Origin: Haliotis rufescens
Lineage: Eukaryota
DNA length: 64,000 nucleotides
Reading direction: 5' to 3'
Assembly: GCF_023055435.1 (NCBI RefSeq)
Contig: NW_025963813.1
Span: 30,070,001 to 30,134,000, forward strand
The translations under genes were made by a program, and so were the position numbers. Shown one piece after another: positions 26,442 to 34,840 of this stretch. The notes below the pieces were generated by a model. It was given only the letters and a program-made list of their open reading frames with translations. It was not told the DNA's origin and did no database searches. Position 1 is the first letter of the stretch, and each line of letters begins with the position of its first letter.

Positions 26442-26939
26442 GAAGAGTGATTAGCGTTACCCAGCACTCACCACGTGGCTGTAGAAGCATTGTTGTTTGT
26501 TGTTTAACGCAGCACTCAGCAATCGCCAGTTAGGTTAGGAGGAACTGTACACTTGTCACACATCGACAGGACACAGGTAAACACTTGATGATATTTATTG
26601 GCAACACTCGAAACGAACCGCGAACCCAAGCGAGCCTCCCAAGACAGGCGAGCTACCAAGGGGAGCTAACCCTGCTTACATTAAAGCATGCCAAGCAAAC
26701 CTGCGTTGGCGTGACTGTCTTTTTTTTCTTCATAATAAACGTTATCTAAACAAACCATAATGAAGGAAATAGGCGTGAAAAACAACTTGGTAAGTAAACA
26801 ATGATGTAATAAAGATCCAATTTCTGGTTAACCATGAAACCAATTGGTAAGTAAACCATCATAGGGAAGACTGCCCTCTGGTCGATGGGGATTATTCTGC
26901 CCCTCACAAACATAACATTTAATAAACAAACACAATACT

Positions 26940-29900
26940 TCAAAAGTCCAAAACGTATTCATCAAATCGCTTTGGTCGTTGACGTTGACGCGATGGCCTT
27001 GAAGTTGAAGATGACTGTATACCTGGGTCAAATAGGGGGTCAGATTGATCCGACGCAGAACTGATGTCGGTTGGGTGATTGTCATCAAACACGTCATCTT
27101 TAAGCGGTGGCAGAGGAGGAGTAGAAATTTCCAGAGGAATGTGCGGAGTCTCCGGTGTCTGGTGAAGTGTCTCAGGTGGGTCATCATCGATGTCAGATGT
27201 GTCCTCACTGTTCGCTTCATGCACACGTGTCTTGTTCCAAAGGGGGACTTTAAAACATTCTGAGAGCTTAACTCTGTATGAAGTGTTCCGCAGTTGGGTC
27301 CCAACGAACTTGCGGACATTGCACCAGAGGCCATCTTTGGTGACTATTAGGTAACGATTCCGTGCACATGTTTTATTGCGATCGTTATGAAGGTACACCA
27401 GGTCGCCAATCTCAATTTGATCAATAACAGGTCGATGACTCCGAGGAGCCTTGGATTTTTCACTGTGACCGTGGTTTTTTTGGCGATTAACATGTTGCTC
27501 TGTGATCAACTGCTTGTCGGACAGAGGCAACTGACAGTTTGTGAATTGGTCTCTCTGGGTCCACATCTCTCGAGAAGACAGGCCTCGTGAACGAATGCGT
27601 GTGTTTAGGCGGGCGACAGCGATGGCAAGAGCTGTTGGTGTAGTGGGGCCCCGTACAGGGTCTTGGCGCACAAGCTCATCCTCTAATTCTTGTATGGCCT
27701 TTTCAGCAACTGGGTTCTTGTTCACTTTCTTCACTCTGCCTATTTCTAGGGTAATTCTATGTTGCTGGAGACGTTCATCCGTGACTAGACTGCTAAAGCC
27801 TGGAGCTGGGTCAGTGCGGATAACAGCGTGAGGACCATCAAGTGGACGGAATTCAATGCTAAGACGAATCAATGCCTCACACAGGGTGGAGCCACGCTCA
27901 TCGGTAATGATGCACGCCGCAGTGTAGGATGTGACACATTCACGTAGAACGAGGATTAGTTGTCGTTCCCTGCGCATAACATCTGACGCAAATGCAAACC
28001 CAACAGTTTCAGGTGGATCACTGGTGCTTTGGTCCACAACAACATGAGGTGTCTTACGCAAGGAGGCGCACCGGTGACAAGATTTTGAGACAGTGTTTAT
28101 GGATCTGTCAAGGTCCAAAGCAAAGAAGTATCTATGGCATACTTGCTTGAGTTGGTGTGCAGATGGATGATCCAGTTGTATGTGTAGGGCAGTCAGGACT
28201 CCGTCTAATACTTGTCTTGGAACAACAATGCACTCTCTTGGTGAACCGAGTGGTTCAGATTTTCGGACAACAAGCAATCCATCCTTGGAGATGGTTGCTG
28301 CATTTAGGTATCGTTTGACATCCCTGATGTTTGTTATCTTCTTGGATGGTCGGGTACCTTGGAGAAGATGAGCATGTGTTCGTCGAAGATCCTGGCACTC
28401 CTCTTGCAAGGAACGCCAAGCAGACCTGCTTGTGAAAGGAAGGCGGGTTGTTCCATTCATGATGTCCTCTATAGACAGTTGTCGAACAACAGAGCTTTCT
28501 GTGCGCTCAATGAAGGAGCAGATTTGGCAAGAGGGATTGTCACATTCTGGTGCATTTCTGCTTGCAAAATCGGATGGCACATTTGCAGAACCAGCGAGAT
28601 GTTGTATCGTTGCTTGGTAGCGGCTAACTGTCGATAAGAAGGTAGACACCCGAGGACTAGCAGAGAACTCCCCACGGCATAACTTCTCAAATGCCAAAAC
28701 ACATGGTCTACTGTCGGTAAGGATACATGCTTTGTGTTTTGACTGGATAATGAAAGGACTGAAATGCTTTGTAGCGATAGCAATTGAAAGGGCTTCCACT
28801 TCACATGGTAACCATGCGACCTGTTGTCGCCGAAGCTTGGCACTGAAGAATCCTGCTAGTCGTGGCGAGTCACTACGTGTTACATAAAGTGTTGTTCCAA
28901 TTCCTGGTTTCCTAACAGCACCATCAGTTACAATCCAGAGTTGGTCATCAGGGTGGGGCAGTACTATGGATTTGTTGGATGCGAGACCAGTCTGTGCTGT
29001 TTTGAAGGCATCGAGCAAAGAATCAGACCACAGAAGCTTTTTTCACTGGACTGGCGACCGCCCACTTCAGCATCAAGTGGGGCAAGGAGTGTGGAACAAC
29101 CAGGTATTACATGGGACAAGACCTTGTAAGCTCCAATAAATGACCGTAAGCCAGTCACTGTTTCCGGAGGTGAACAAGAAGCCAGAGTTGATATGCGGTG
29201 TTGACTTGCCTGAATGGATCCTTGGTGCCATTGCCATCCTAGGATGGTTGTTGTCCTGGGAGCAATGACTGTCTTGTTAGGAGATAATCTGAGATTGTTG
29301 TGTTTGAGCGCTTCAAGTACGCGTCTCCAATGAAGAAGTAACTCATCCGGGCTATCAGCACCACAATAAAGGTCGTCAGCAAGCTTAGCAATCACCCCTT
29401 CCTCTAAAAGATCCCCTAGTACGCGGCGCATGAGCTCCTCCAATGCAGTTTCAGAGCCCGGCATTCCGATTGCAGACCTGGCATATACTCTCACACCACG
29501 GAACGGGGTCACTACACCGCAGTATTTCATCGATTCCTTGGACAGAGGAATCTGATAAAAGGCATTGGTTAAATCTGTGGTTATAATGTACTTCCACTTG
29601 GCAATCTGTCTTAGAGTAGAATCGACATCAGGCATGAGGGAAGGTTGTGGCTTACTGTATCGTCCTACATCAGAGAAGGCGGTCACCAATCTGTAACCAC
29701 CAATGGACTTCTTGATTAGGAAAGAAGGGTTGAGGTATTCTACTTGGATACCAGCATCTTCAGGTCGTACAAATACACCCATCCGCTCAAGTTCATTGAA
29801 CTTTTGTTGGAGCTTAGAAAGTTTATCTCGTGAGTATTGCGGGACACGACCCTTCCGTTGTGGAGGTTGTACAGGTCCCATGTTAACAAATGCTTGAAAG

Positions 29901-31786
29901 GGGCCTGAAGCACCATTATAGCCATCGATATGTTGGTTAAACACATCGTCGAACTCCGTAAGTAGTAACTCAAACTGAGATTTGGTATCTTGCGGGAGGA
30001 TATTGTCTGGGTCTACACAAACAGTGGATGAGAAACCAATGTCCTTAATTTGAGGGGACATAGTTGGTGGTAGCAGATGTGCGGGCTCAACATCATAACC
30101 AGGGTCGCAGTCAGGTATAAAAACTGGGCGAATCTGGCAAAAGTGCTCGTGTTTCTTGAGCAGTTGTGGAGTGTCGTACAGATTCGGGATCCTGATTTTG
30201 CCTGAGACACTTGAGATAATTCCTAATTCTGGCCAAGTGGATGATAAGGTAGAGCGTCCAGGTCTGGTATCTATGCGGGGTTCTATGGCAAATGTGAAAT
30301 CCGAAGGAGCAAAGCTTTCAGGAACCGGCACCTCAATAAAGTCTCCAGGCCATATGGTAGTAGAAGTGTCTGGGGCTCTGAGTACGCAAGCTCGTCTCAC
30401 AGTATGTTTGTCACCAGTTGTTTCTGTGGAACCGTATGTGTATGTCGTACCATCACCAAGTATGATCCGATGTTTTCCAGGGCGTACTGCCACATCGTTG
30501 GCCTCCATAAATGGTATGCCTGCAAGGACTTCTACATCCAGGTTTTCCACCACAAGACCACTAAAATCGAACTCCTTGTTGTCGCGTGTGAAAAGGATTC
30601 TTGTCTCTCCAACGACCTTCAGTGGGGAAGAACCATCTGCCTGATGGGCTGACTGAGAGCTAGTCTTGATGTCAGCGCCGAAGCCTGTTGCTGTTGAGAG
30701 GCGGATCATATTACCAGTAGCTCCACTATCTACAGTGACTAGTGCCGTCTGGTGGCCACAAAAACAGTACATATAGGGCGACTGACGGACTTGCACACGA
30801 AGAGTTGAGACAGGTTCAGTAGATGGCACTGCACACGCATTTTCAACTGTATCACTAGCATCGTCAGCAGGGTCATCAAGTATACTGGCAATTTGTCTTG
30901 CCATGTATCTCCGGTCATGATCTGGAAGGAACTTGCACTCGCTGAGATAATGAACATGATCGCTGCGTCCTGCAGCTTTACACAGTGGGCATGATTTTGG
31001 AAACTTTCTACCCGTTTGTTGTGCTTTAGCAAAACGTGAGAATGACAAGCGCTGTTGTGAAGTGTTTGTCCTCATAACCTTAGCATCCTCTGCTGTGCGG
31101 ATTTCATCTAAAAGTGAATCGAGAGCCTGTTAGATTTCAGGTTTCAAAGAGGAAATTGTTTGTGAGCGAAGATCTGTCCCATAACGTTGTTTGACGAGCT
31201 TTGGAAGTTCAACGTGTATTAGCCTCAGCCATGTAAGCACAACAAAATTTTCTAACGATGGTGACAATTCCTCGTCCTCTTCAGGTGCATTGCCATAGTG
31301 GGTTATTCCCCCTTCACGGCGGAGTAAATTGTCCTCCACAAAAGCCATTAGTCTCTGATACAAATCTTCCGGTCTCTCGTCATTTTCAAGTTTGATTTCG
31401 GCAAAGTCAATGAAATGAGCGCCAGTTGCTTGGAACCCGAAATGTAGGCGTATGGCATCTACAGACGTTGAGGATTTTATTATGGTGTTCCGTGAAATTA
31501 TCGGACAATAATTGGCAATCTAGCCGAGCATAAGCTCCAAACTGCTAACCTTTTGTCTTGCAGTTCTCCTAACAGCTTCACGGACGTCTTCCCCGTCGTC
31601 AGTCATGCCCCTGAGTGGCGTGGCCCTAGTTTTCTTATGCCAGACTGCCCCGTCGGCAAGAAATGGAGTAAAATTTGTGTCCAAAGATAATGTATAAAGG
31701 AGATTTTGCCTCCAGTTCTCGAAAGAATTTACAGTCTCAATCTTACCGAGGCACCATTGCTTCGGGGCACGTTGAGCGTTGGCCAT
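26940..31786 (-). pseudogene. gag-pol polyprotein with stops at 31520-31522 and 31130-31132 and a frameshift near 29030
   Basis: Gag Zn knuckle CPLC...H...C; protease VDSGA; RT TDLTNAFYQIP and LADD; RNase H VTDGA, EVEAL, LTDS; integrase HHCC and D...D(35)E (SDV, RTDP, VAEK). Confidence 0.92.
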
Positions 31787-31913
31787 AATGACAGTCTTGT
31801 TTACTCTGCGTTATCCAGGCACTCTACCGCCTGACCTGTTGATCACGTTCAGTGAAAGTATGCAAGTACTACAGTTCGTTGTGCCGCCTGCTTCGTTAGA
31901 CGTGAGTTCAAAC

Positions 31914-31925
31914 CCGCTGCCACCA
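31914..31925 (-). promoter_or_regulatory. Primer-binding site complementary to a tRNA-Leu 3' end
   Basis: TGGTGGCAGCGG is the reverse complement of ...CCGCTGCCA-CCA, the 3' end of metazoan tRNA-Leu(AAG/TAG). Confidence 0.75.
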
Positions 31926-34840
31926 CGCCAGTTAGGTTAGGAGGAACTGTACACTTGTCACACATCGACAGGACACAGGTAAACACTTGATGATATTTAT
32001 TGGCAACACTCGAAACGAACCGCGAACCCAAGCGAGCCTCCCAAGACAGGCGAGCTACCAAGGGGAGCTAACCCTGCTTACATTAAAGCATGCCAAGCAA
32101 ACCTGCGTTGGCGAATATTACAATTTTATGACAGTCTGTAAATCAAGTCTGGACCAGAAAATCCAGTGATTAATAATACTGTAATCATCATCCTTTCCCA
32201 AAGAACACACGCAAGTCGTTGCCACAATCAACACACGTCTTTATTTCATTACTGAACAAATCCAACTGTCCTAATGGTCTGACTGCCCCCTACTTTATTC
32301 TATTCTTACCGTGTACCCGCTTACCAAGCAACCATCCCCTTCGTCCGCCATATTCGTTCTGCCTCCGTTTAGAGTTATCCCCCTTATACAGCCAAGCTCC
32401 TCACAGCAATATCCCGTTCGCGGAGCTCTCTATTTACTATCGCTGACACCAGTCAAACTCCCCACGGTGATAGATGACCAAAACCATGCTTGGAGTTGAA
32501 CTCGCAGCCGATTGACCGTTATGTTTACAAACAAGTGACGACTGTCGTGACGCCGAATACACTTACCGCTGATAAATTACTTTCTTTGTTTGTCAATTTG
32601 AATTTCTATTTCATTAAAATTATCATGTAATTGATAAAGTAAGAATGTAAGGGAGAAGTTGGTTGATTTTCCGTTAGTCTGCAATCTCGAACCAATCTGA
32701 TTATACAAACAACAAAGTAAATTCATCTGGAAAACATGGTCAGTCGTAAACCTTTTCAAAATCAAATATGATGGTATTCCGAAAGATATAAACAAAAGTA
32801 TAAACGTTACTACATTTGGGGTTAGAGGGCAAATTTCAAGATTCTTGTAATGGCCGCGCCCACTCTGGTGGCAGCGATGTTACCGAGAGTGTAACGAAGG
32901 TGTCACGCACTGGGAAGGAGCTTGTGACAGTGCATATAGGGTAACACAAGTTGCCTCCCCTTATACAATACTTCAACGCTCCACGTCGTCGGGACATGCA
33001 ATCGATTACGCCTACTCTTCCGACCAGCTAGGGACGTATTCTAACCACAGGGTTTATAGAAATAACGGTATATCCGTTAAAACAATCAAAAAAAGCGGAG
33101 TGATCAAGACGAATCAGGCAAAGTGGTTGTTTGAAGGCTGTCAAGGTCAGAGATGACACATAGCAAGTCACACATGTAACTAACCAATACTCAAGCCACA
33201 AAGTATTTTTGCTAAGCGTATTATCCATATGCAATAACATTGCAAAGAAGCTTACCCCCGCGAGGATTTCGGTTATTGGTCCATAGCAACCCATGACGGT
33301 CGGTATAGGCGACTCAATGGGTCGTACATGATAGGTACAATGCGGTTCTCTCTTTATATGGGGACGTAACCCCCTTTTGGTACGCGGGATTCGCGAGTTT
33401 GTTGGCATGGTATGGTTTCTTGCTTAACGCCAAACTCATCAATATTCCAGCTATATGACGGCGGTCTGTAAATAATCGAGTCTGGGGACCAGACAATCCA
33501 GTGATGAATATCATGAGCATCGATCGATGGGATCGATGACATGCATCAACCAAGTCAGCGAGCCTGACCACCCGATCTCATCAGTCGGATCTTACGACAA
33601 GCATAGTCGCCTTTTCCGCCAAGTTGTTGTTGAAAATAAAATGCAACAAACGGTAACCTGCTTGCTTATGTTCAAGAAACATTCATCAATGACATCCTTC
33701 TTATGATTTTGTGAGAGTTAAACAGTGACAGTTTCTTTATGTATGAGAAACCCTCATCAATGGCCTATATGCCACGTACATGTAGGTTACAAGCAAAACA
33801 AGCAAGAGTGAGCCAGTGAGTTAAAATGTAACATCAAATCTGCATAATAATTTTACAATTTCAACCCTACCAGGGGCACAGTCACTAAAAATCACAGTTA
33901 ACAATCATTTACTACCGATTTATGAAATAACTAACTTTGTATGTCATTTTTTTAAAATTCTATTTCTTTTAATAAGCACAATATTAAATGAAAATTATCA
34001 TTAATAATGAAGTCTTTGACATTTTTTCACTGAAATATTTATCCCTTGTGATGGCAAAATCAATACAGTCAGGCAGGACATGCTTGATCCTCTCCTTTTA
34101 AATGGATATTTCTGTGAATATCTGCTGTGGCCTTTACGGGGGCGGTCGGATAGCCTAGTGGTTAAAGCGTTCGCTCGTCACGACGAAGACCCGGGTTTGA
34201 GCCTGACCACCCGATCCCGTTAGTCGCCTTTTACGACAAGCATAGTCACCTTTTACAGCAAGCATGGGTTGCTGAAGACCTATTCTATCCCGGAATCTTC
34301 ACGGGTTGGGGTTTGTTTGGAGGGTATTCGGGACTCAGTAGTGTGGTACACGGGATGGCTATAAAGACATATTTGGTACGCAGATTCAACATTTAAAAAG
34401 AATATTGGTGTGCGTAAAAAAATCCTTCATATATTTTTTCGACATTATTTTGAGTAATTTAACTTCAGATCGCACCCTTTTAGGGCCAAGGAACGTGTTC
34501 TGTAGGTTTTTGTCTGTGATTGACATTCTGCCTTCATCGAGTGAATTCTATGAATTAGTTTTGATATTTGTGTCAAGTAGTATTCGGGATTCAGGGGTGA
34601 GCACATGAGACTCGGGATTCAGGTGAGGTGGTTGTGGCACTCCCTTAGAGTGGCTATCGGGTAGCCTAGTGGTTAAAGCGTTCGCTCGGGTTTCGATGCC
34701 CGACATGGGTACAATTGTGTGAAGCCCATTTCTAGTGTTCCCCGCCGTGATATTGCTTGAATATTGCGAAAAGCGGCGTAAAACCATACTCACTCACTCA
34801 CTTAAATTGCAGAGAAATACTTTTGTGACCATCTTTCTAA

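Follow-up and report, generated by a model that had tools for sequence, protein, structure and literature searches.

Troyka long terminal repeat (LTR) retrotransposons were reportedly described by Kapitonov and Jurka in 2008. Here we analyse an element that almost certainly belongs to this group (Kuafuortervirus) and that lies, both LTRs included, on the minus strand between 26,524 bp and 32,113 bp of a 64,000 bp stretch of the Haliotis rufescens genome (contig NW_025963813.1), hereafter called the window. Kojima (2025) defined Troyka by CG…CG ends, duplications of 3 bp at the target site (TSDs), a CX2CX8-10HX4C zinc knuckle and the lack of a tether, an env and GPY/F, surveyed 603 LTRs, of which 573 have CGCCA and 522 have TGGCG, mentioned abalone elements and proposed a superfamily of its own outside Gypsy (PMC12440569). 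Gong and Han (2024) included Troyka in the Kuafuorterviruses, elements of 5–6 kb with the reverse transcriptase (RT) motif IADD, VADD or LADD, set the group outside Gypsy and listed three Haliotis species (PMC11673190). A further paper cites Troyka (PMC12859917).

The window element resembles Troyka as defined by Kojima in its CGCCA…TGGCG LTRs, their length (100–400 bp), its 3-bp TSD, the order gag, protease (PR), RT, RNase H (RH) and integrase (IN), its knuckle, the absence of env and GPY/F, and its aquatic animal host; none of the defining features differs, the window copy being broken. The knuckle reads CX2CX9HX4C here and has Troyka spacing in 109 of 120 relatives, and [ILVM]ADD is found in about 117 of the 120. 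A single Gag-Pol with PR-RT-RH-IN and neither tether nor env is present in the nearest protein, P0001. The integrase lacks GPY/F; the likely equivalent place reads RxRY, and GPY/F occurs elsewhere after the core in 3/116 relatives. With the Kuafuorterviruses the element shares the RT motif, the 5–6 kb length and Haliotis hosts, whereas termini, TSD and primer sites are not treated in the main text on that group. By eye, the RT of the window element also has the surroundings of YSKPQPSLMPDVDSTLRQIA and of AKLADDL in common with one Haliotis RT row in the Kuafuortervirus supplement.

Ends and target sites in the window and the genome

Two identical direct repeats of 188 nt (100% identity) form the 3′ LTR (26,524–26,711 bp, minus strand) and the 5′ LTR (31,926–32,113 bp, minus strand). 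Both read CGCCA…TGGCG, as an earlier note on this DNA had claimed, and the 3-bp TSD that it proposed was borne out: AAT is found, with no strand assigned, at 26,521–26,523 bp and at 32,114–32,116 bp, as judged from the sequence and from empty-site comparison. The element interrupts a host interspersed repeat (26,494–26,520 bp, resuming at 32,117–32,176 bp) that exists in a high number of copies and carries a simple-repeat tail. Deletion of the element and one AAT gave joined flanks that aligned across the junction to nine further copies of this repeat within the window, which represent paralogous empty sites. For the best of these (40,325–40,418 bp) the E value went from 4e-19 with both AAT to 2e-22 with one; the score was better in 8/9 alignments and worse in 1/9. 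The sequence CACTCAGCAATATT occurs exactly three times in the window, and eight times with up to two mismatches vs 0.74 expected.

The earlier note had also proposed tabulating the termini and TSDs of other genomic copies. An LTR query of the genome gave 40 scored matches out of 53 candidates (family A), an integrase query yielded further families, and seven families were grouped by eye on their LTR sequence. Examination of 100 LTR loci (family A, 40/40; B, 30/35; C, 30/33) revealed a CGCCA start in 93 and a TGGCG end in 93, and TG…CA at both ends in none of these loci of three families. Two loci start with TG (L018 and L143) and two end with CA (L035 and L159), single-ended changes that are expected from CpG decay. 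The three families include 44 independent two-sided insertions, a count that leaves aside duplicated loci (L124/L130, L133, L158 and L160), single-sided LTRs and L060. An exact 3-bp duplication was present in 43 of the 44, the remaining one differing by one base; one also fits 5 bp and none fits 4 or 6 bp, so that a TSD of 4–6 bp was rejected. Automatic LTR pairing found pairs in 45/61 stretches; L070, L071, L082 and L098 proved to be flanking repeats and not LTRs, and L050, L063 and L075 are partial.

The duplicated bases show that the target preference is symmetric, with C-W-G at its centre. Of the three TSD bases, the middle one is A or T in 40/43 (p about 1e-5 vs flank composition), the first is C in 18/43, the last is G in 29/43, and a pyrimidine-purine (YR) step lies inside 35/43. 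The profile of the flanks has its axis of symmetry at the central TSD base (r 0.78, compared with 0.25 or less on 13 other axes), which independently supports the 3-bp register. Family A (L001–L040) additionally showed an orientation bias, with G in third place only in 11 TSDs vs C in first place only in one (two-sided p 0.006), or 16 vs 4 when single-sided copies were added (p 0.012); this comparison is post hoc and small. Families B and C showed no such bias (8 vs 7).

Several other features of the copies were seen. In family C (L101–L130) many LTR pairs are 99.5–100% identical and several copies retain long uninterrupted frames, which points to very recent activity of this family in the genome. 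One solo LTR, flanked each time by a TTG duplication, recurs at L157, L158 and L160 in 3-kb surroundings that are 92% alike, suggesting that this LTR was carried within a larger duplicated or mobile unit. A metagenome contig (L185, 4591–7005 bp) encodes an internally deleted Troyka of 2.4 kb with CG ends, a tRNA-Leu primer-binding site (PBS) and a TAT duplication.

Primer junctions, integrase and the joining of the ends

The PBS of the window element (31,914–31,925 bp, minus strand) is 12 nt complementary to the 3′ end, CCA included, of a host tRNA-Leu (TAG/AAG), and adjoins the LTR with zero spacer, in agreement with the earlier note. The tRNA was found through a pattern search of the genome, in which the tRNA-end pattern has 190 exact matches; tandem tRNA-Leu gene arrays were seen at L161–L168 (G000 C57 and C24). 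At the other junction a polypurine tract of 14 purines, followed by CAGTCA, adjoins the 3′ LTR (26,712–26,731 bp, minus strand) and by its position probably serves as the plus-strand primer; its last four bases before the LTR fit RYYR (R, purine; Y, pyrimidine). The PBS TGGTGGCAGC adjoins the LTR in 7/7 families of the genome and the RYYR end precedes it in 7/7 families as well as in 18/18 metagenome loci with a located tract, these being related elements and not independent trials. Among metagenome loci 13/36 have the PBS next to the LTR, a count of the TGGTGGCAGC type only in a set in which many other contigs stop short of the 5′ LTR. A scan of viral contigs for the LTR-PBS junction gave 120 loci, and in none of them did tblastn match the PR-RT frame of the element. 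At L191 (1386) a different second primer site follows a CA-type end upstream of a Troyka LTR and likely belongs to a canonical LTR element, either neighbouring or nested. The complementarity of PBS and tRNA-Leu makes this tRNA the likely primer of reverse transcription in the family; its 3′ end ACCA also fits RYYR, so that both primer-DNA junctions look alike.

In retroviral intasomes the integrase loop around the catalytic glutamate (E) is in contact with the DNA end. In an alignment of 117 closely related integrases the residues around this glutamate are nearly invariant: K at E−9 (117), N at E−6 (117), K at E−5 (116) and P at E−3 (117), with V or I at E+3 (116) and E at E+5 (117) downstream. 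Five distinct control integrases of the same genome have Y at E−9, G at E−3 and N at E+3. The loop appears lineage-specific, which would fit the altered end recognition that the earlier note proposed for the integrase, and is no more than a candidate for recognition of the CG end. An integrase model built from 49 sequences (predicted local distance difference test score, pLDDT, 77.9; predicted template modelling score, pTM, 0.53) superimposed on Rous sarcoma virus (RSV) integrase with Z 17.9 and a root-mean-square deviation of 2.2 over 147 residues, and on Ty3 integrase with Z 15.9; as a single sequence, the integrase found no solved structure at better than E 0.19. The intasomes of RSV, mouse mammary tumour virus, human immunodeficiency virus 1 (HIV-1), prototype foamy virus (PFV) and Ty3 are alike in integrase fold and D-D(35)-E, but have CA ends, 4–6-bp TSDs and other catalytic-loop residues, with identity of only 13–21%.

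We hold with high confidence that the window contains a broken, recent Troyka copy of a family in which tRNA-Leu priming and blunt CG-end joining, with a 3-bp stagger at C-W-G, are likely. The proposal builds on the observed structure, termini, TSD, primer-site complementarity, purine-tract edge, target bias and retroviral integrase fold. As the PBS has no spacer, minus-strand DNA primed by tRNA-Leu would start at the LTR edge. The plus-strand primer would end at RYYR, the context of the tRNA ACCA, and RNase H would take off both primers at the junction; with RYYR at both junctions, it would define both ends alike. The rewired loop before the catalytic glutamate may then read the CG end, and integrase would join the blunt ends, untrimmed, across a 3-bp stagger. 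For this last step, blunt joining without trimming, we lean towards the proposal by analogy with Ty1 (Pseudoviridae), whose integrase joins blunt complementary DNA (cDNA) ends (PMC2939329). Ty1 differs in its TG…CA ends, 5-bp TSD and Copia lineage. The Ty1 PBS likewise has zero spacer. The purine tracts of Ty1 and Ty3 are described as short runs of purines (PMC3185511). The short stagger may come from a sharp bend of the target at a flexible pyrimidine-purine step; PFV integration sites favour a flexible central YR step (PMC6784120).

It is possible, rather than probable, that the linear cDNA of the same element carries two or three extra bases at each end, which integrase trims behind CG. The extra bases would come from the tRNA CA or CCA and from the YR or YYR after the purine tract, and removing them would parallel retroviral trimming behind CA; retroviruses normally trim two or three bases (PMC6784120). 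The inner neighbours of the LTRs are symmetric, TG on the PBS side and YR in every case on the purine-tract side, and YYR would remain if the primer were cut behind the last purine. Such trimming would, however, oblige RNase H to leave 2–3 tRNA ribonucleotides, and the extra bases vary (CA, TA, TG and CG). RNase H enzymes are not known to leave more than 0–1 tRNA ribonucleotides. The zero-spacer PBS, moreover, resembles that of Ty1, which uses blunt ends.

Several points weigh against the reading of a Troyka copy with blunt, untrimmed joining. Both internal junctions read TGGCG and then YR, as would be expected just as much from symmetric trimming, and the only match in a genome search for an integrated LTR-LTR junction was a chance sequence, so that no cDNA end was observed. 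In the integrase model the loop (188–191) has pLDDT below 50; the 117 integrases are close relatives with at least 56% identity, and the five distinct controls represent about three families, from 16 of 30 loci fitting the search motif. A one-base TSD mismatch is found in the solo LTR L032 and in the older copy L060, and the flanks of the metagenome copy L186 do not match. Element-skipping joints in the contigs of four DNA runs, which the high-copy host repeat swamped, come from paralogs and carry no allele evidence. Finally, the comparison of the window RT with Kuafuortervirus sequences is one made by eye.

Beyond blunt joining, we tentatively suggest that Troyka has an end-making and end-joining logic of its own, in which the purine tract would mimic the tRNA-Leu end, so that a single RNase H rule would set both ends, and the nearly invariant loop would read CG in place of CA and bend the C-W-G target to a 3-bp stagger. 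The LTR ends of family A may then be non-equivalent, giving an orientation-biased target.

Coding content and decay of the window copy

The first ATG opens an N-terminal region (31,130–31,786 bp, minus strand) that is probably gag, judging by where it lies and by the intact relative P0001, and that is interrupted by stops at 31,520–31,522 bp and 31,130–31,132 bp. It is followed by a 721 aa open frame (28,964–31,129 bp, minus strand) that encodes the gag zinc knuckle (30,935–30,991 bp), an aspartic protease and the reverse transcriptase. The RT catalytic motif is LADD (29,372–29,383 bp, minus strand), as the earlier note had read it. A frameshift near 29,040 bp puts this frame out of frame with the 700 aa RNase H and integrase frame (26,940–29,042 bp, minus strand), which has an HHCC zinc domain, D-D(35)-E with its catalytic residues at about 27,983, 27,812 and 27,704 bp (minus strand), and SH3-like C-terminal strands. 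Beyond the gag, PR-RT and RH-IN frames the element has no further long sense open reading frame (ORF). Its nearest protein, P0001 (labelled Haliotis cracherodii), is a Gag-Pol in one ORF of 1616 aa, in which about 65 aa separate RT from the RH that follows, and shows 98% identity over RH-IN and 97% over PR-RT; further named matches are from corals, a sea anemone and pearl oyster. Between RNase H and integrase lies a stretch with cysteines (28,460–28,640 bp, minus strand) that faintly matched the zinc finger PF25112 (E 0.05, below cut-off).

The window copy is a real, recently inserted and now broken element. It has two small deletions besides the stops and the frameshift, and 31 private substitutions in 5211 positions (0.59%). 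A copy already defective before its move, with mobilisation in trans, would explain why 100% identical LTRs stand beside a broken ORF; we consider this rather improbable, given that 0.59% divergence predicts about two LTR differences and the chance of seeing none is near 0.1, so that decay after insertion suffices.

Of the features of Ty3/Gypsy (Metaviridae), TG…CA ends, 4–6-bp TSDs and a YxDD RT are absent here; the order PR-RT-RH-IN is present but is common to Troyka and BEL and so non-diagnostic. An ordinary Gypsy element, with ends and TSD misread or with TG…CA ends mutated in a single copy, is barely credible: it would account for the domain order, for the best solved-structure match (Ty3 Gag-Pol, E 3e-33) and for the four TG or CA ends mentioned above, but those one-ended changes are CpG decay, the TSD is 3 bp in 43/44 with the paralogous empty sites in agreement, GPY/F is lacking where it would be expected, LADD and CX2CX8-10HX4C occur across the family, and the termini of the 100 LTR loci together with the TSDs of the 44 insertions refute it. 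The earlier note had assigned the element to Troyka on its CG ends and 3-bp TSD, which stands; its wording 'Gypsy-like' is outdated, because both Kojima (2025) and Gong and Han (2024) move the group out of Gypsy.

Elsewhere in the window, tRNA-like heads at 34,131–34,177 bp and 34,642–34,688 bp, near copies of the host repeat, suggest by eye short interspersed elements. A C/A-rich minisatellite of 4.3 kb (2839–7161 bp; 29-bp unit, about 146 copies) causes a strong GC skew.

Published features and implications

CG ends, the 3-bp duplication and the LADD motif are already published, also for abalones (PMC12440569, PMC11673190), and the novelty implied by the earlier note is lowered to that extent; since the group is in print, as are the three oddities that were flagged, the discovery value is small. 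The main texts of these two papers hold no tRNA-Leu PBS adjoining the LTR, RYYR tract end before CGCCA, C-W-G target preference or lineage-specific integrase catalytic loop, and the words PBS, primer, tRNA and polypurine do not occur in that of Kojima (2025). Our searches yielded no literature on a target preference that goes with CG ends or with sites of 3 bp, and none on Troyka biochemistry. The primer site, end design and target preference therefore appear to be undescribed; the 2008 Repbase report or the supplements of Kojima (2025) may already cover the PBS or the target bias.

Troyka is a natural exception to the rules of LTR integrases, CA ends and 4–6-bp TSDs. LTR finders that demand TG…CA and 4–6-bp TSDs would miss these elements, of which the genome has at least seven families. 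The primer junctions, the C-W-G bias and the loop residues make the reading of CG and the 3-bp cutting addressable by short oligonucleotide assays.

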